Shown: positions 19,190 through 34,477 of the stretch, one piece after another
How the letters are laid out: each line of letters opens with the position of its first letter
How positions within the stretch are numbered: position 1 is the first letter of the stretch
Source: a virus
Taxonomy: Duplodnaviria; Heunggongvirae; Uroviricota; Caudoviricetes
Virus record (IMG/VR): IMGVR_UViG_2667527818_000007
Strand: one strand, 5' to 3'
Length of the DNA stretch: 34,477 nt
The notes under the pieces: model-generated
The model's input: only the letters and a program-made list of their open reading frames with translations
The model's database searches: none
Told to the model about the DNA's origin: nothing
Position numbers and translations under genes: made by a program

Positions 19190-21508
19190 ATGAGCACAAA
19201 ATTCAGAACCGTTATCACCACTGCCGGTGCAGCAAAGCTGGCAGCGGCAACCGCACCGGGAGGGCGGAAGGTCAACATTACCACGATGGCCGTCGGGGAT
19301 GGCGGTGGTAAATTGCCTGTCCCGGATGCCGGACAGACCGGGCTTATCCACGAAGTCTGGCGACATGCGCTGAACAAAATCAGCCAGGACAAACGAAACA
19401 GTAATTATATTATCGCAGAGCTGGTTATTCCGCCGGAGGTGGGCGGTTTCTGGATGCGTGAGCTTGGCCTGTACGATGATGCAGGAACGTTAATTGCCGT
19501 GGCGAACATGGCCGAAAGTTATAAGCCTGCCCTTGCCGAAGGCTCAGGGCGTTCGCAGACCTGCCGCATGGTCATCATCGTCAGCAGTGTGGCCTCAGTG
19601 GAGCTGACTATTGACACCACAACGGTGATGGCAACGCAGGATTACGTTGATGACAAAATTGCAGAGCACGAACAGTCACGACGTCACCCGGACGCCTCTC
19701 TGACCGCAAAAGGTTTTACTCAGCTAAGCAGCGCGACCAACAGCACGTCTGAAACACTGGCCGCAACGCCGAAAGCGGTAAAGGCCGCCTATGACCTTGC
19801 TAACGGGAAATATACTGCGCAGGATGCCACCACGGCGCGAAAAGGCCTTGTTCAGCTCAGTAGTGCGACTAACAGCACGTCTGAAACGCTCGCCGCAACA
19901 CCAAAAGCGGTAAAAGCAGCGTATGACCTTGCTAACGGGAAATATACCGCACAGGACGCCACCACAGCGCGAAAAGGCCTTGTCCAGCTCAGTAGTGCCA
20001 CCAACAGCGATTCTGAAACGCTTGCGGCAACGCCAAAGGCGGTTAAGACAGCGTATGACCTTGCTAACGGGAAATACACTGCACAGGATGCCACCACGGC
20101 GCGGAAAGGCCTTGTCCAGCTCAGTAGTGCCATCAACAGCGATTCTGAGACGCTGGCTGCAACACCAAAAGCGGTGAAGTCTGCCTATGACAATGCTGAA
20201 AAACGTCTTCAGAAAGATCAGAATGGTGCGGATATTCCGGGAAAGGATACCTTCACGAAAAATATCGGTGCCTGTCGTGCTTATAGCGGCGCTTTGAGCA
20301 CTGAAGCCGGAAACTGGACAACCGCTCAGTTTATTGAATGGCTGGATTCCCGTGGTGCATTTAATCATCCGTACTGGATGTGCAAAGGCTCCTGGTCATA
20401 TGCAAATAACAAAATCATTACGGATACCGGATGTGGTGATATCCACCTGGCTGGTTGTGTCGTCGAGGTCATGGGAACAAAATCTGCAATCACTATTCGA
20501 GTGACCACGCCGACAACATCAAGCGGTGGCGGTACAACCAGCGCGCAATTCACTTACATTAATCATGGGGACGGCTACTCCCCCGGCTGGCGTCGTGACT
20601 GGAATCGTCAGGGCGACGCAATGACCGGAACGATTAATCAGGATGGCGGAAGCCAGAATGCCTATATGTCTACGGCCTTATGTTCAGGCACCAGAGGCGG
20701 CAAAAAATATCTCAGAAAGTTTCGTGGTGGAGAAGGAGACACTATCTGGCATGAAACAGTGCAGGGCGGGGTAATTCGCTGGGCGACAGGAAACTATGAC
20801 GCTCAGGAAGAATTATCACTCAGCTCCGCTTATGGTCTCCGTTCTAGAGGTGAAATTACATCACTCAGTGCTAATGGTCTGCGCATTGCTTATGGCAATT
20901 ATGGATTCTTTATCAGGAATGATGGTGGCAGCACATATTTAATGCTGACGGCCTCTGGTGATAAATTTGGGACATGGAACGGTTTAAGGCCGCTGACTAT
21001 CAATAACGCTAATGGCGGAGTGTCAATGGGGCATGGCCTGAGTGTTACTGGTGATATTGCCTCAAGTACCAAAGTACGTGCCGGTAGCGGGAAAAAGTTC
21101 ACGGTCAGCAGCAGAAATACATCCACGAAGGAAGCCGCATTCAATTTGTGGGGAAACTCAAGTCGTCCTGTGGTGGCTGAATTAGGTGATGATGCAGGCT
21201 GGCATTTTTACAGTCAGAGAAATACAGATAACAGCATCACTTTTGCTGTTAACGGGCAGGTATCACCATCTAACTATAGTAATTTTGATTCACGCTATGT
21301 CCGGGATATCCGGCTTGGTGGTGCTGCCACATACAAACCTGCGAACAATGGCATGACATGGACACATCAGGCACCGTCCGGGTGTGTATATTCCGGCATT
21401 ATTGTTCAGGATACCGGCTCAAACTCTGCCGATAACATTGGTGGCATATATTACAGACCGGTGCAGAAATACATTAACGGGACATGGTATAACGTGGCGC
21501 AGGTATAA
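19190..21508 (+). CDS. H: tail fiber protein gpH (772 aa) with internal tandem repeats
   Basis: Conserved N-terminus, then about 3.6 tandem copies of a 41-aa unit and a variable C-terminal receptor-binding region; followed by G. Confidence 0.85.
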   Translation: MSTKFRTVITTAGAAKLAAATAPGGRKVNITTMAVGDGGGKLPVPDAGQTGLIHEVWRHALNKISQDKRNSNYIIAELVIPPEVGGFWMRELGLYDDAGTLIAVANMAESYKPALAEGSGRSQTCRMVIIVSSVASVELTIDTTTVMATQDYVDDKIAEHEQSRRHPDASLTAKGFTQLSSATNSTSETLAATPKAVKAAYDLANGKYTAQDATTARKGLVQLSSATNSTSETLAATPKAVKAAYDLANGKYTAQDATTARKGLVQLSSATNSDSETLAATPKAVKTAYDLANGKYTAQDATTARKGLVQLSSAINSDSETLAATPKAVKSAYDNAEKRLQKDQNGADIPGKDTFTKNIGACRAYSGALSTEAGNWTTAQFIEWLDSRGAFNHPYWMCKGSWSYANNKIITDTGCGDIHLAGCVVEVMGTKSAITIRVTTPTTSSGGGTTSAQFTYINHGDGYSPGWRRDWNRQGDAMTGTINQDGGSQNAYMSTALCSGTRGGKKYLRKFRGGEGDTIWHETVQGGVIRWATGNYDAQEELSLSSAYGLRSRGEITSLSANGLRIAYGNYGFFIRNDGGSTYLMLTASGDKFGTWNGLRPLTINNANGGVSMGHGLSVTGDIASSTKVRAGSGKKFTVSSRNTSTKEAAFNLWGNSSRPVVAELGDDAGWHFYSQRNTDNSITFAVNGQVSPSNYSNFDSRYVRDIRLGGAATYKPANNGMTWTHQAPSGCVYSGIIVQDTGSNSADNIGGIYYRPVQKYINGTWYNVAQV
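19718..20190 (+). repeat. about 3.6 tandem copies of a 123-nt (41-aa) repeat inside H
   Basis: LSSATNS(T/D)SETLAATPKAVKAAYDLANGKYTAQDATTARKGLVQ repeated; nucleotide copies differ mainly at synonymous positions. Confidence 0.85.
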
Positions 21509-21511
21509 TTT

Positions 21512-22036
21512 ATGCAGCATTTGATAAATATAACGGCGGGTAATCCAAAAACAGTTGAACAATATCAATTGACAAAGGGCTTTGATGTTGTCTGGTTTTT
21601 TACAGAAGATGGTAAGAACTGGTACGAAGAACAAAAGTATTTTGCTGATGACACGATAAAAATAGCGTACGACAAAGATAATATTATCCGCTATGTGGAA
21701 AAGGATGTGACAGCTATCAGGCCGGATGGATTAAGTGTTGTTGAAGTGCCGGATATTACTGCTAACCGACGGGCGGACATTTCAGGGGGCTGGATGTTTA
21801 AGGACGGCAAAGTGATTAAACGCATTTATACGGCAGAGGAATTACAACAGCAGGCAGAAATTCGGAAAGCCAGACTTCTTGCAGATGCTGAATCCGTGAT
21901 TTTGCCACTGGAGCGCGCTGTCAGGCTGAATATGGCAACAGATGAGGAGCGCAGCCGACTGGAAGCATGGGAACGCTACAGCGTTCTGGTCAGTCGTGTG
22001 GATCCTACAAATCCTGAATGGCCTGAAATGCCGTAA
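21512..22036 (+). CDS. G: tail fiber assembly chaperone gpG (174 aa)
   Basis: Immediately downstream of H; length close to P2 G. Confidence 0.8.
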
Positions 22037-22311: not shown

Positions 22312-23667
22312 CTATTTGTCACTAGCCATATCTTTCTTGCATTTTGGACATGGCACCAACATATCTTCTTTCACCAAGTAATAATATGGAATTATTATGC
22401 TATAACCCTGACAAGTTATATGTTCATATGCGATCGTTGGTGTCATATCTTCTTTATCATCGGATTCTATCGGAACCTCCCTAAACATTAATTCAGGTAG
22501 TGGTAAATCCTCTGGGTTATATAATGTCACCATCAATGGTTGTCTTTGGTATGCTTCCTCATTATTTGGAGTTTGACCTGAAGCCAAGTCGATTAACTTA
22601 ACCATATTAATCTGTTCATTGCTAACACAATAATTTACTAATGTATTTAAAGCTTTCTCTTTGAATAAACGATGATATGGACCGTGTGCTTTACAGTTAA
22701 TTAACTCATTAAACATGCCAAAATTAAATTCGTAAGAATAATCTCCAGCAGTTAAAGGTAGTCTATAATAATCACTTATATTTACATTCCCTTTTTGAGT
22801 ATTATTCAACAATGTAATCATTAAATTGTGGAAGTTAACTAAGGAACAACCATCACGATCAGGAAAGCCATGTACAATCATGTCAGTTGCATTAATCATC
22901 CTATCTGAATTATGACTCAGATATTCATTGTTGTTACCAAATAAAAAATAGCCTTTATTTAATATGAAAACTGCATTTGGTAGTAATTTTGTTTCATTAC
23001 TCTGGATTTCTTCCTTAAGAGCAGATACTATATCATCCCAGTGCATTTCTGTTTCATAAGCAAAAACAACTCCAAACCCTGCGAGTGATTTGTTATTTAT
23101 ATAAAATCCATGGTCATTCTTTTTTCTTTGTAGTTTTTTATATGATGCAATGTTTTTTATGGCGCTGCTTAATTCTTTCCTGGTAAGGTTTGATTTTACT
23201 TGAATAACTCCATATACATTTTCAGAAGGGTAAACATCATATATTTCGTTACGCTGCATTAGCACATATCCATCATCTGCATCATATAATGCGATGTCAA
23301 TCTCGTTGCTAAGATGTCCTGTAGCAGCAGCAACTCTTACGCTTCTTGAAGATACAGCATAACGCCCTGGGAATAAACCGCTTAATTTCAAGAAGTTTTT
23401 TAGTATATTTTCTCGAGCATTGCCTAAGTCTCTTGGATGGGATATATCCCTCGTTTTCTCGTATTCAAATTCAATATTTTTTTGAAAGTAATTCAGTTCT
23501 CTGATAATGCCATGAAAATCTCGTTCTTTACTACGAATATCGTTCACATGTTTATTTAAATTTGAAAAATACTCACGTATATTCATTTCCTTTTTATCAA
23601 ACTCTGCACGTCGTTCTTTTTCAGCTTTTGTTATCCGAACTTTCCTAGTTTTTTGTTGCTTAGTCAT
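22312..23667 (-). CDS. hypothetical protein (451 aa), partner of the SIR2-like gene; possible nuclease-like core
   Basis: Intact AT-rich ORF in the G-FI hotspot; charged Lys/Arg/Glu-rich N-terminus; weak PD-(D/E)xK-like pattern (IDIALYD...GVIQVKS, aa about 124-158); C-terminal Cys cluster (...CQGY...CPKC). Function not established. Confidence 0.55.
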   Translation of the reverse strand: MTKQQKTRKVRITKAEKERRAEFDKKEMNIREYFSNLNKHVNDIRSKERDFHGIIRELNYFQKNIEFEYEKTRDISHPRDLGNARENILKNFLKLSGLFPGRYAVSSRSVRVAAATGHLSNEIDIALYDADDGYVLMQRNEIYDVYPSENVYGVIQVKSNLTRKELSSAIKNIASYKKLQRKKNDHGFYINNKSLAGFGVVFAYETEMHWDDIVSALKEEIQSNETKLLPNAVFILNKGYFLFGNNNEYLSHNSDRMINATDMIVHGFPDRDGCSLVNFHNLMITLLNNTQKGNVNISDYYRLPLTAGDYSYEFNFGMFNELINCKAHGPYHRLFKEKALNTLVNYCVSNEQINMVKLIDLASGQTPNNEEAYQRQPLMVTLYNPEDLPLPELMFREVPIESDDKEDMTPTIAYEHITCQGYSIIIPYYYLVKEDMLVPCPKCKKDMASDK

Positions 23668-24141: not shown

Positions 24142-25656
24142 TTATTGTGACGAGTACCGTTTAAAATCATATAAGCTAACAAGTCTTTTATAATCTGAGG
24201 ATGATATTTCAAGGGTAACTCCTTCCCTCAAATATCCTTCGATATTATCAAGGTCAATATTGTTTACATATGTGTTGTAAAAAATAACTCGAACGAGTTT
24301 GTACGGTTTGAATCCGAGGGAAATGATTTCATCCACTGTGTCGCAGTTAATTCTTTCAGATTCATCAATAGAATTAAAATAGGTGGTAAGATTTGTTTCC
24401 TGATTATTTTTAAGTTGCTCAATATTTTGTATTTCATTACATATTGTGGAAAATCCATGCGCTGTAAAATACTGTGTTCGGGTTACTTTTATTTTATTTA
24501 ATAGCATGATTAGCGCATCATTTTTGGAGTCCATGATTTCAAAATAATTCATAACCATTTCGGATGCTGATTGATAATGGTAAGTTATTTTCTGCACAGA
24601 TCCAACAGCCATGACTAGTTCGTCATTAGCTAAGTTATCTAAATCACCAACTATTTTCACTTTAACAGTACCGCCTTCTTTTATTTTTCTCATTACTCCT
24701 TCAACCTTTCTAATATCCATAGATGATACTGGAAGTTTAAGGTTTATTAACCCCTCGAAAATCCCTTGAAAATTATCGGTTTTAATCTTGTTGATTTTAA
24801 TATTACCAATATTTTCGATAACCACATCATGTTCAAGCACTTCAAGGGAGTTGTTGTCTGCGTCTCGTTCAATAAGCAGAAAATTCTTTCTAACCTTATC
24901 GGCTAAATCGGAATCTTTAGGAATATAAGAAAAAATAGTTTTCAGAATCTCTCTGATATTCTCATCGCTTATGCTATAGCCGATAAATATAATAGGATTG
25001 TGAATGAATAAAGAAATGAGCTGGGCTCTAATTAAGTGATTATTGATTTTAAATCTTTCATAATCGGAATCTGAAATCACAATAGATTCAGGATGTGAAA
25101 CACAACCGTGTATTTTATATACAGATCCGTAAGGGTTACTTAGCAGAATATCATTCCCAATGATTGGATTAAACCCAATCAATGTCTCAATGAATCTATC
25201 ATAATTCGTTGTAATAACTGAGCCTATATTTCGACTTGCTTTTGCAAATAATTCCATTTCTGTTGCATACTTATCATCATCATTTATTTGATGTAGATCT
25301 ACAAGTTCAGATATAAATATTTTCATGCGACTGGCAGAGTAGTTTCCTGAAGCAGCATACTCGTAGTATTTGTCATTTATTCTTTTAAACTTACCGTTCC
25401 TATCAGCTTCTAATAATCTATTGAACTCTGTTTCAATTTCGCTAGCTACTTTTGGTAGATCAATTTCACCTAAAGAATTAGCGTTCCTGCCTGCGGAGTC
25501 AAAATAAAAGTCATGACTCCCTTTCATTTCGTAAACAATCTTTTTTAGAAGTTCTGACCATGAGTAAGTGCCTACCAGGTATCTCCGGCTAAACCCTGCA
25601 CCAACAAACACTACTGGATGGTTTACATAAGATTCCATGAATTCACTAATATTCAT
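24142..25656 (-). CDS. SIR2-like (sirtuin-fold) protein (504 aa) with an uncharacterised C-terminal domain; candidate NAD+-consuming defence effector
   Basis: Sirtuin-family signature order in the N-terminal half: VFVGAGFS (GAGxS, aa 19-23), TTNYD (aa 149-153), KIHG (aa 181-184). The C-terminal half of about 250 aa is not Gly-rich and not recognised. SD ggagaagg upstream of the ATG. Confidence 0.7.
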   Translation of the reverse strand: MNISEFMESYVNHPVVFVGAGFSRRYLVGTYSWSELLKKIVYEMKGSHDFYFDSAGRNANSLGEIDLPKVASEIETEFNRLLEADRNGKFKRINDKYYEYAASGNYSASRMKIFISELVDLHQINDDDKYATEMELFAKASRNIGSVITTNYDRFIETLIGFNPIIGNDILLSNPYGSVYKIHGCVSHPESIVISDSDYERFKINNHLIRAQLISLFIHNPIIFIGYSISDENIREILKTIFSYIPKDSDLADKVRKNFLLIERDADNNSLEVLEHDVVIENIGNIKINKIKTDNFQGIFEGLINLKLPVSSMDIRKVEGVMRKIKEGGTVKVKIVGDLDNLANDELVMAVGSVQKITYHYQSASEMVMNYFEIMDSKNDALIMLLNKIKVTRTQYFTAHGFSTICNEIQNIEQLKNNQETNLTTYFNSIDESERINCDTVDEIISLGFKPYKLVRVIFYNTYVNNIDLDNIEGYLREGVTLEISSSDYKRLVSLYDFKRYSSQ

Positions 25657-33115: not shown

Positions 33116-34477
33116 TCACTTACCGTGTGGGTTACGCGTGGTTTCCCCGGAGAAATTACGCATCAGCAGAGCGTAATTGAGCTCAAGATCCTGCGGGACC
33201 GGGAGCCACACAGTATAACCATCGCCTGGTGCGACCGGCATCGCTTCACCTTTGGCGTTTTCCATGTGCTCAAGGGTAAAGTTAATGTTGCCTTGCGGCG
33301 TCATCAGCTCAAGGCTGTCGCCAACGGAGAATTTATTTTTCACCGCTACCGCCGCGAGGTCCCCCTTGCGCTCACCGGTAAACTCACCAACAAACTGCTG
33401 GCGGTCAGAAACTGAATAACCGTATTCGTAGTTCTGATAATCGTCGTGAGTATGACGACGCAGGAAACCTTCGGTATAGCCACGATGCGCCAGACCTTCC
33501 AGAGTTTCCAGCAGGCTGGTATCGAACGGTTTGCCCGCAGCGGCGTCATCGATAGCTTTACGGTAAACCTGTGCGGTGCGTGCGCAATAGTAGAAAGATT
33601 TAGTACGGCCTTCGATTTTCAGCGAATGCACGCCCATTTTGGTCAGGCGTTCTACATGGGCGATGGCGCGCAGATCTTTCGAGTTCATGATGTAAGTGCC
33701 GTGCTCATCTTCAAACGCGGTCATATACTCGCCCGGACGCTGGGCTTCTTCGATCATAAACACTTTGTCGGTTGGCGCGCCGATACCCAGCGTCGGCTCA
33801 ACATTTTGCACCGGAATCGGCTCGTACTTGTGTACGATGTTGCCAACGTCATCTTCTTTCCCTTCCTGGACGTTGTACTCCCAGCGGCAGGCGTTGGTGC
33901 AGGTACCCTGGTTCGGATCGCGCTTGTTGATATAGCCAGAGAGCAGGCAGCGACCGGAGTAGGCCATGCACAGTGCGCCGTGAACGAAGATCTCGATCTC
34001 CATATCCGGCACCTGATTGCGGATCTCTTCAATCTCTTCCAGCGACAGCTCGCGAGAGAGGATCACGCGGGTCAGGCCCATTTGCTGCCAGAATTTCACC
34101 GTCGCCCAGTTTACGGCGTTAGCCTGCACCGAGAGGTGGATCGGCATTTCAGGGAAGTGCTCACGCACCAGCATAATCAGCCCTGGATCGGACATAATCA
34201 GCGCATCCGGCCCCATTTCCACCACCGGTTTCAGGTCACGGATAAAGGTTTTCAGCTTGGCGTTGTGCGGTGCAATGTTGACCACGACATAAAACTTTTT
34301 CCCCAGCGCGTGGGCTTCATTGATGCCGAGCTGAAGATTTTCGTGGTTGAATTCGTTGTTGCGCACACGCAGGGAGTAACGCGGCTGGCCCGCATAAACA
34401 GCATCTGCGCCATAAGCGAAAGCGTAACGCATATTTTTCAGCGTTCCCGCCGGGGAAAGGAGTTCCGGTTTAAACAT
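33116..34477 (-). CDS. yegQ: peptidase U32-family protein YegQ (453 aa; tRNA hydroxylation-associated)
   Basis: Complete 453-aa ORF beginning MFKPELLSPAGTLKNMRYAFAYGADAVYAGQPRYSLRV...; recognised as the U32 peptidase-family host gene next to cyaR. Confidence 0.8.
   Translation of the reverse strand: MFKPELLSPAGTLKNMRYAFAYGADAVYAGQPRYSLRVRNNEFNHENLQLGINEAHALGKKFYVVVNIAPHNAKLKTFIRDLKPVVEMGPDALIMSDPGLIMLVREHFPEMPIHLSVQANAVNWATVKFWQQMGLTRVILSRELSLEEIEEIRNQVPDMEIEIFVHGALCMAYSGRCLLSGYINKRDPNQGTCTNACRWEYNVQEGKEDDVGNIVHKYEPIPVQNVEPTLGIGAPTDKVFMIEEAQRPGEYMTAFEDEHGTYIMNSKDLRAIAHVERLTKMGVHSLKIEGRTKSFYYCARTAQVYRKAIDDAAAGKPFDTSLLETLEGLAHRGYTEGFLRRHTHDDYQNYEYGYSVSDRQQFVGEFTGERKGDLAAVAVKNKFSVGDSLELMTPQGNINFTLEHMENAKGEAMPVAPGDGYTVWLPVPQDLELNYALLMRNFSGETTRNPHGK

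Follow-up and report, generated by a model that had tools for sequence, protein, structure and literature searches.

Tandem 44-residue PF03406 repeats in the tail fiber gene H of a P2-like phage and their probable reshuffling by recombination

We analyzed a stretch of 34,477 nucleotides of viral DNA (Caudoviricetes; IMG/VR record IMGVR_UViG_2667527818_000007), which is called the window throughout this text. The window carries a tail fiber gene H followed by the gene of a fiber assembly chaperone, G. The four ORFs upstream of H encode 211, 115, 302, and 176 aa, which are the sizes and the order of V, W, J, and I of bacteriophage P2. After H-G there are two low-GC cargo genes and then ORFs that fit the P2 tail sheath genes by order and size. 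No tRNA genes were found in the window. In closed E. coli genomes the same gene is labelled 'tail fiber protein' in RefSeq. The two genes and the domains of H outside its repeats are listed below.

19190..21508, + strand: tail fiber gene H, 772 aa (ORF listing)
19190..19642, + strand: N-terminal tail-collar / baseplate-attachment domain, aa 1-151 (Pfam PF12571, E 1.6e-58)
20189..20650, + strand: distal domain like the Mu tail fiber S' domain, aa 334-487 (PDB 8ju3, best stretch 2e-69)
20810..21001, + strand: T4 gp34-type trimerisation domain, aa 541-604 (Pfam PF21446, E 9e-26; matches to PDB 4uxe and 5yvq)
21254..21505, + strand: C-terminal tip common to P2 H and Mu S, aa 689-772 (sequence comparison)
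21512..22036, + strand: tail fiber assembly chaperone G (Pfam PF02413, E 9e-34)

An array of repeats lies between the PF12571 domain and the distal domains resembling Mu S' and gp34. Tandem Repeats Finder reports it as one tandem array at 19721-20191 with a period of 132, 3.6 copies, 87% matches, no indels, and a score of 669. A preliminary description of this DNA, made from the sequence alone, had placed about 3.6 copies at 19718-20190, in agreement with this result. The repeat unit of 41 aa given there has to be corrected to 44 aa (132 nt), because it is the Pfam profile match, and not the period, that measures 41/42. The parts of the array are the following.

19697..19720, + strand: leader half-unit DASLTAKGFT, the counterpart of the DATTARKGLV that ends units 1-3; the first Pfam repeat begins here
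19721..19852, + strand: repeat unit 1, 44 aa
19853..19984, + strand: repeat unit 2, 44 aa; same protein as unit 1, with 16 third-position differences
19985..20116, + strand: repeat unit 3, 44 aa; substitutions T9D and A22T (2 aa relative to units 1 and 2)
20117..20191, + strand: truncated unit 4, 25 conserved codons through AVKSAYD; end of the array
19790..19812, + strand: near-invariant 23-nt core TATGACCTTGCTAACGGGAAATA, found again at 19922-19944 and 20054-20076
20192..20245, + strand: conserved linker NAEKRLQKDQNGADIPGK 3' of the array, common to Mu S and 186 K; distal modules of relatives diverge just past it

The repeat of H is PF03406 (Phage_fiber_2, or Pf2), an ordinary and already catalogued module. 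The Pfam profile 'phage tail fibre repeat' matches H in four stretches with 265.4 bits (cut-off 22) and an E-value of 1.1e-80. The first stretch covers aa 170-210, and the Pfam register, which starts at aa 170 (nt 19697), gives four repeats. A total of 405 phage records contain PF03406, among them those of P2-like, Stx/lambdoid, P1, Mu-like, and Haemophilus phages. Neither PMC3368898 nor PMC8078820 describes a solved structure of the repeat; published models of the Mu fiber span the N-terminus and the C-terminus of gp49 (PMC11915804). An AlphaFold2 monomer model of aa 140-370, built with a 20-sequence alignment, is all-helix and of low confidence (pLDDT 42, pTM 0.20).

Two ORFs of the opposite strand overlap the array.

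19724..20368, - strand: antisense ORF of 214 aa, a non-genic by-product of the repeat (ORF listing)
19852..20136, - strand: antisense ORF of 94 aa (ORF listing)

We rejected a true antisense gene here. In the 214-aa frame pN is 0.15-0.18 and pS is 0-0.06, and such an excess of pN means that there is no protein-level constraint in this frame. Antisense ORFs over the array had been suspected to be artefacts of the repeat from the beginning, rightly so.

A close known relative is gpH of P2 (AF063097). H of the window shares with it the gene order V-W-J-I-H-G with the downstream chaperone, the N-terminal domain together with the first repeats (96% identity over the first 251 aa), the PF03406 unit of 44 aa, and a motif at the C-terminal tip. 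However, P2 has two units, one full and one truncated, against four here, and after the AVK of its last unit it continues into a different middle part (TVMDETNKKAPL...). The middle of the two proteins is non-homologous, and the distal 400-500 aa, where the receptor-binding part of P2 lies, are only partly homologous to H of the window, with 38% identity over the C-terminal 289 aa. The best matches of the distal part of H are Mu S' and T4 gp34. On this comparison, H of the window is best described as a mosaic allele of the H family and not the P2 allele. The lengths of 772 aa for this H and 669 aa for P2 gpH are both confirmed. The suggestion that the repeat block lengthens the fiber stands in part: two extra units account for 88 of the 103 extra residues, but the distal two thirds of the proteins differ, so that this is not a like-for-like comparison.

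Much closer alleles exist. P2-like phages that plate on Yersinia pestis (vB_YpM_46, vB_YpM_115/117, and P37) have the same H architecture and copy number as the window. The H gene of vB_YpM_46 has 97.6% nucleotide identity over 92% of the gene, and the H genes of the Yersinia phages differ from that of the window in the last roughly 190 nt. An E. coli prophage H in RefSeq (WP_370622188.1, strain ET729) is 99.9% identical over the whole gene, again with the same architecture and copy number. The H alleles of these relatives differ mostly within the repeat block.

Mu S and 186 K contain one and two PF03406 units, respectively, against four here, and in both the linker NA.ARLAKDRNGADIP.K follows the repeat as it does in H. 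The next distal domain is also common to H and Mu S' (PDB 5yvq, 8ju3; E 4e-90 for 8ju3). The annotation of 186 K places a Mu-like inversion crossover site right after the linker, whereas its counterpart in H keeps only the AATATCGGT core. In Mu an invertase switches the distal parts of the fiber. Within the window, the ORF map past H-G contains neither an invertase nor an alternative inverted segment of the Mu G or P1 C segment type, a result that rests on the ORF map and on the partial match to the 186 crossover site. Lambda Stf and the collagen-like prophage fibers of EHEC (EPclB) also carry PF03406, as an internal module of trimeric phage fibers (PMC3368898). Those proteins have a single Pf2 unit or few units between collagen or coiled-coil stalks and an N-terminal PF08400 domain, whereas H has a pure tandem array after PF12571.

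The three full units differ from each other at 16, 20, and 17 nt of 132, and third codon positions account for 47 of the 53 differences. The observation that the copies are nearly identical as proteins and diverge largely at wobble positions is therefore correct. Pairwise dS is 0.58-0.80 and dN is 0-0.036, which gives a dN/dS of about 0-0.06. The peptide of the repeat units is under strong purifying selection. A dS of 0.6-0.8 between units, against 0.09 between the N-terminal domains of this H and of P2 H, indicates that the units diverged early compared with the spread of P2-type phages. Thus purifying selection after an old duplication, one of two explanations proposed initially, is supported, with the addition that the units probably also recombine or convert each other and are not independent.

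For 76 complete H genes with N-termini at least 99% identical, we counted the units by an identity scan against the unit consensus. There are two copies in 16 genes, three in 3, four in 49 (the commonest state), and five in 8, and the spacing is 44 aa without exception. The repeat is therefore not invariant across P2-like H proteins. Whole-unit differences occur inside one distal class (772 and 816 aa; 709 and 621 aa, with tails 99.2% identical), although copy number is constant in most distal classes. It is uniform in the 772-aa class, in 12 of 12 IMG/VR genes and in every closed-genome match listed. Copy number also goes with the type of junction. A P2-type junction always follows two copies, and the Mu-S-like linker follows three to five copies and leads into at least three different distal modules. 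Between copy number and the length of the protein outside the repeats there is a weak, non-significant trend (Spearman -0.36, p = 0.15, 17 classes). A literature search on repeat copy number and fiber length gave nothing pertinent, and the accessible papers on P2 fibers are silent on the repeat.

The repeat block is 3-4 times as polymorphic as its flanks. Nucleotide diversity is 0.066 in the block and 0.016 in the N-terminal part, and the share of variable four-fold sites is 51% in the block and 21% in the flanks. Among closed genomes, differences amount to 3.8-7.0% in the block, whereas the distal 1317 nt differ by 0.1-0.3% in four of five diverged alleles and by 4.1% in the fifth. At four-fold sites 41 of 63 variant states match the state of a paralogous unit against 27.5 expected (p = 5e-4); this control reduces, and does not remove, the part of shared states that may reflect mutational or codon-usage bias. 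Taken together, the polymorphism of the block and the tendency of its variants to copy a paralogous unit point to recombination or gene conversion between units. One relative (L065) has the unit order 1-3-2-4; some IMG/VR contigs are short-read assemblies in which chimeric units are possible, and the reshuffling pattern is reproduced in six closed genomes. Comparison with more distant phages is consistent with concerted evolution. All units of PSP3 have the residues N4, D7, A29, and I43, the last three of which are also found in the single full unit of 186, and the residues of the lineage studied here are S4, N7, G29, and L43. Within the array dS is 0.6-0.8 against 1.3-2.5 between genera. Judging from these lineage-specific residues common to each array, the units of an array do not simply diverge independently. 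Intragenic conversion and misaligned recombination of co-resident prophages are not cleanly separable.

We consider it likely that the array forms a P2-type proximal fiber shaft of four tandem Pf2 modules, whose old silent variants have been reshuffled, and whose number has been changed, by recombination or conversion. The four 44-residue modules stand between the baseplate-plugging domain and an exchangeable distal receptor-binding part. The silent differences between units are old paralogous variants, mostly biallelic, and about half of the codons carry them all. They are continually reshuffled, from unit to unit and between related prophages, by homologous recombination or gene conversion, and through the same process whole units are gained or lost, leading to two to five copies in otherwise near-identical fibers. 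The truncated last unit and the linker serve as a joint for the attachment of different distal modules. Each unit may correspond to one trimeric shaft module, and the number of units would then set the length or reach of the fiber and not its receptor specificity. The published host-range determinants of P2-like fibers are near the C-terminus (PMC5285337).

The polymorphism of the block might instead be mainly imported from PF03406 fiber genes of other phages (lambdoid stf, Mu/P1 S) or from other P2-like prophages. There is some evidence of such exchange. In one allele (L082), units 3-4 and the distal part show no difference from the window, but units 1-2 differ by 6-8% and the N-terminus by 1.5%, which implies that two alleles crossed over within the array. 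Lambdoid side-tail-fiber genes found in many of the same genomes have 84-89% identity to the repeat DNA, and genomes holding any match have a median of two matching places. However, variant states tend to equal those of paralogous units within their own array, and the 1-3-2-4 swaps and identical neighboring units are most simply explained as intra-array events. Import as the main source is thus possible but rather unlikely; it overlaps with the preferred reading, and import and intra-array conversion are not exclusive.

The second explanation proposed initially was selection against recombinational collapse, in which synonymous differences are kept because sufficiently dissimilar units escape deletion by RecA or Red. 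Several features fit it. Internal units of 64 distinct arrays have a mean identity of 87.6% at the nucleotide level and 95.7% at the protein level. The longest run of perfect identity between units, which contains the core TATGACCTTGCTAACGGGAAATA, is 23-28 nt, and about this length is the minimum for efficient homologous recombination in E. coli. Most distal classes hold a single copy number. Nevertheless, the 16-20 differences observed between units are only half of the 32 +/- 4 expected under free synonymous recoding (P < 0.002), i.e., the units are about half-way to synonymous saturation. Identical runs exceed those left by random recoding (median 11 nt), and the third position never varies in about half of the codons. 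Arrays with 99-100% identical neighbors exist in nature (units 2 and 3 are 100% identical in L019 and 99.2% in L014), and gains, losses, and swaps of units mean that recombination does happen. Old duplication, purifying selection, and occasional conversion suffice, and given the half-way divergence, the 23-nt core, and the identical-neighbor arrays, selection against collapse is not needed; we regard it as improbable.

A related possibility is that unit number is an adaptive 'length dial' matched to the distal module and to how thick the surface layers of the host are (LPS core, O-antigen, capsule), with silent heterogeneity kept since identical arrays are deleted too often. The dependence of copy number on junction type, the whole-unit variants, and the rarity of near-identical internal pairs (at least 98% identity in 2 of 177) are compatible with this possibility, which we regard as improbable.

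It is very unlikely that the array is a fast contingency locus in which slipped-strand mispairing switches copy number within a population: otherwise near-identical fibers do differ in copy number, but contingency repeats of the slippage type are short, near-identical, and change at high frequency, whereas the units here are 132 nt long, in frame, and 12-15% diverged, which makes them poor substrates for slippage, and the 772-aa class is uniform.

Short-read assemblies often break in H, as seen from the many 'partial' database homologues that end at contig ends, but there is next to no chance that assembly errors produced the repeat or its copy number, since units that differ about every 8 nt are resolvable by reads, the reading frame is unbroken across the array, and the full-coverage matches listed from closed E. 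coli genomes are collinear and equal in length, three of them at least 99.8% identical. A place covering at least 80% of the H gene exists in 173 complete E. coli genomes, and all 43 full-coverage matches listed consist of one alignment piece each (42 of 2319 nt and one frameshifted pseudogene of 2318 nt).

For annotation the locus is routine: a catalogued repeat in a common P2-like prophage fiber, of which many public E. coli genomes hold near-identical alleles. Within the proximal fiber, polymorphism and proneness to recombination are highest in the repeat block, which is also a place where short-read assemblies break; therefore, allele typing and prophage comparison in this region need long reads. 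Natural fibers with two to five units, including whole-unit variants on the same distal module, are suitable material for relating shaft length to adsorption. For the engineering of P2 and R-type pyocin fibers, the array offers two naturally tolerated fusion points, one following the last unit's AVK and the other following the NGADIP.K linker.

The window is a P2-like prophage that contains an integrase-sized ORF, replication protein A (PF05840), and capsid and tail gene blocks. In its V-W-J-I-H-G block, the ORFs before the tail fibre gene H have the same sizes as in P2 (211, 115, 302, and 176 aa). Tandem Repeats Finder detected a single strong array in the whole window, at 19721-20191 (period 132 nt, 3.6 copies, 87% matches, 0 indels, score 669). 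The features of the region are as follows.

19190..21508: H, 772 aa
aa 1-151 of H: tail-collar fibre N-terminal domain, PF12571 (Pfam)
19721, codon 178: start of unit 1
19853, codon 222: start of unit 2
19985, codon 266: start of unit 3
20117, codon 310: start of unit 4, of which only the first 25 codons are retained
aa 541-604 of H: T4 gp34 trimerisation domain, PF21446 (Pfam)
21512..22036: G, tail-fibre assembly chaperone, PF02413

The unit starts at codons 178, 222, 266, and 310 give a period of 44 aa and not 41 aa, as the preliminary description had it; the array itself, its conserved peptide and its wobble differences were described correctly, and the repeat is real once the unit length is corrected. 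All 44 residues of units 1 and 2 are identical, and unit 3 departs at two of them (T9D, A22T). The three full units differ pairwise by 16, 20, and 17 nt per 132 nt, with 47 of these 53 differences at third codon positions (dS 0.58-0.80, dN 0-0.036, Nei-Gojobori). Two antisense ORFs lie over the array (214 aa at 19724..20368 and 94 aa at 19852..20136). When the units are compared with one another in the reading frame of the 214-aa ORF, pN (0.15-0.18) exceeds pS (0-0.06), while a coding frame shows the opposite, in agreement with the earlier suggestion that such ORFs are artefactual.

Pfam finds PF03406 (Phage_fiber_2, “phage tail fibre repeat”, hereafter Pf2) four times in H (E 1.1e-80). The earliest of these matches opens at aa 170, since the Pfam register lies eight residues ahead of the unit boundary. 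In sequence, H best matches the solved structures of Mu tail fibre S/S' (8ju3, E 4e-90; 5yvq) and T4 gp34, and its C-terminal tip matches a short tail fibre. The Mu S/S' chains have one repeat copy followed by the same linker as in H. P2 gpH (669 aa) is 96% identical to H over residues 1-251, but it exits the repeat after AVK and continues with an unrelated middle; identity over the last 289 residues is 38%. Thus H is a mosaic allele, with four parts as judged from these matches: the attachment domain of P2, an array of four Pf2 units, the conserved linker NAEKRLQKDQNGADIPGK, and Mu S'-type and gp34-type distal domains. A mosaic of this kind was described for L-413C gpH (PMC7460101). The length excess over P2 H that had been noted before (772 versus about 669 aa) is mostly due to the array, since two extra units make up 88 of the 103 residues; the remainder reflects a different set of distal modules. 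H genes of the window's length (the 772-aa class) have a second polymorphism hotspot in the gp34-like distal region (20906-21037, codons 573-616; diversity 0.11-0.15), with many non-third-position changes, and this segment is possibly a receptor-contact one.

Copy number was counted in 80 IMG/VR loci with an H N-terminus at least 99% identical to that of the window. The 76 complete H genes among them have two (16 genes), three (3), four (49), or five (8) units, spaced by exactly 44 aa throughout. In this sample the 669-aa P2 class invariably has two units and the 772-aa class invariably four. Whole-unit variants occur on one distal module: a five-unit H of 816 aa (locus L015) has a tail of the same length as the window H tail and 93.5% identical to it, and the tails of a three-unit H of 621 aa (L041) and a five-unit H of 709 aa (L001) are 99.2% identical. 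An assembly artefact is ruled out. Among the full-coverage matches listed in complete E. coli genomes (n=43), 43 of 43 align as one collinear piece, with a length of 2319 nt in 42 cases, and three are at least 99.8% identical to H; at least 80% of the gene is covered at one place in 173 complete E. coli genomes. Copy number is thus neither artefactual nor invariant, the two outcomes that the preliminary description had asked to check, the gene being collinear in closed genomes and its unit number ranging from 2 to 5 in relatives. The remaining listed match is a 2318-nt frameshifted pseudogene of the same H allele (L086, E. coli 2013C-4830, NZ_CP027325.1 2870408-2872725). Most of the best-matching public homologues (P0001-P0120) of the H N-terminus and repeats are “partial” and end at contig ends; therefore, short-read assemblies often break off within the repeat block or directly behind it.

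In the IMG/VR relatives copy number follows the type of junction to the distal modules. The P2-type exit (AVKTVMDETNKK) always comes with two units, the exit AVKSAYDNAEKRLQKDQNGADIP with three to five, and directly past the linker of the latter exit the relatives continue with one of at least three distinct distal modules. The annotation of phage 186 gene K places a “Mu-like inversion crossover site” at the same point, after the same NGADIP linker. By our own comparison, its counterpart in the window (20253-20278) keeps the core AATATCGGT alone, about 12 of 26 bases. An alternative fibre segment in inverted orientation was not seen in the window.

Selection of silent differences to prevent recombinational collapse of the array, proposed earlier as one cause of the divergence, is a minor possibility. 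Divergence of 12-15% would be expected to lower deletion by homologous recombination, given the general behaviour of RecA and mismatch repair. If the unit were encoded twice, independently and with the codon usage of this operon, the two synonymous versions would differ at 32 ± 4 nt (75.6% identity) with a median longest identical run of 11 nt, against 16-20 nt and 23-28 nt in the real units, which are therefore far from maximally recoded, and arrays with identical neighbouring units occur. This explanation is unnecessary, as no observation here requires it.

Unit-to-unit dS (0.6-0.8) is about 8 times that of H versus P2 H in the N-terminal domain (0.09) and smaller than that between genera (1.3-2.5 versus PSP3 and 186). 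All units of the window array and of P2 have S4, N7, G29, and L43. The PSP3 array has N4 and D7 in all units and A29 and I43 in both full units, and the single full unit of 186 shares D7, A29, and I43 with PSP3. Such lineage residues common to units are what concerted evolution, or separate expansion in each lineage, leaves behind; one ancient duplication followed by independent drift would not produce this pattern.

Units usually keep their positional identity (64 distinct arrays), with exceptions: the unit order is 1-3-2-4 in L065 and 1-3-3-4 in L052, and units 2 and 3 are 100% identical in L019 and 99.2% in L014. Within the 772-aa class the block has a nucleotide diversity of 0.066, compared with 0.016 for the N-terminal 531 nt and 0.032 for the remainder of the gene. 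The comparison was repeated with alleles from six closed genomes, to avoid short-read chimeras. Of these six, one almost matches the window; the other five differ from it by 3.8-7.0% in the block, by 1.1-2.3% in the N-terminus, and in the distal 1317 nt by 0.1-0.8% (four alleles) or 4.1% (the fifth). One closed-genome allele (L082) equals the window in unit 3 and everything after it and differs by 6-8% in units 1-2, which points to an allelic crossover inside the array. Minor states are found at the homologous site of another unit in 76 of 98 cases (IMG/VR 772-aa class), and 65-76% of variant states in closed genomes equal the state of another unit. Of the 63 variant states at four-fold degenerate sites, 41 coincide with the state of a paralogous unit, versus 27.5 expected from the transition/transversion spectrum of the flanks (binomial p = 5e-4); 51% of such sites are variable in the block versus 21% in the flanks. 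Silent variation affects only about half of the 44 codons, mostly as two alleles of intermediate frequency; the other codons (e.g., TAT-GAC-CTT-GCT-AAC-GGG-AAA) are essentially invariant in 135 distinct unit sequences.

Together, the seven lines of divergence evidence indicate that a limited set of old paralogous variants is reshuffled by homologous recombination or gene conversion, both between units and between prophages, while strong purifying selection acts on the repeat peptide. The earlier explanation, purifying selection after an old duplication, thus holds with a refinement: reshuffling takes the place of independent drift.

A monomer structure model of the repeat region was unusable (pLDDT 42). 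Little is known about Pf2, interpreted in a collagen-like prophage fibre as a globular node between stalks after rotary shadowing (PMC3368898); a contact-based model of the family is uncertain (PMC8078820), and Mu fibre models span the N-terminus and C-terminus of gp49 (PMC11915804). The repeat is flanked by the attachment domain on one side and the distal domains on the other, its 44-residue period is strict, and its gains and losses involve whole units; from this we infer that each unit may be one trimeric shaft module and that copy number would set shaft length or reach. An effect of copy number on host range is possible; in the P2-like fibre P88 the experimentally mapped host-range determinants are near the C-terminus (residues 716-746, PMC5285337).

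A search with two units as the protein query retrieved 405 phage records with the repeat, including P2-like, Stx-converting and other lambdoid, P1, Mu-like, Haemophilus, and Pasteurella phages. DNA similar to some part of H is present in 2591 of 5426 complete E. coli genomes (median 2 and maximum 11 places per matching genome; 69 places on plasmids). Many of these matches span the repeat block alone, with 84-89% identity, and sit inside lambdoid “prophage tail fiber N-terminal domain-containing” (side-tail-fibre) genes. The repeat is a textbook-type, already catalogued PF03406 feature in a common H allele. Its distribution fits a long-standing view, reportedly that of Haggard-Ljungquist et al. 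in 1992, that conserved fibre segments allow unrelated phages to exchange fibre parts.

Between G and the tail sheath gene, in the position of fun(Z) in P2, there are two cargo genes of low GC content (about 30-35%, versus about 55% in tail genes). One (22312..23667, minus strand) encodes a 451-aa DUF6602 / PD-(D/E)xK NucC-like nuclease (PADLOC E 1.7e-24), the other (24142..25656, minus strand) a SIR2-like protein of 504 aa with a match to the candidate defence system PDC-S25 (E 4e-144); the pair is probably an anti-phage defence cassette. A U32-family peptidase gene (33116..34477, minus strand) reaches the right edge of the window; it is bacterial and looks like a host gene, and the prophage therefore ends to its left.
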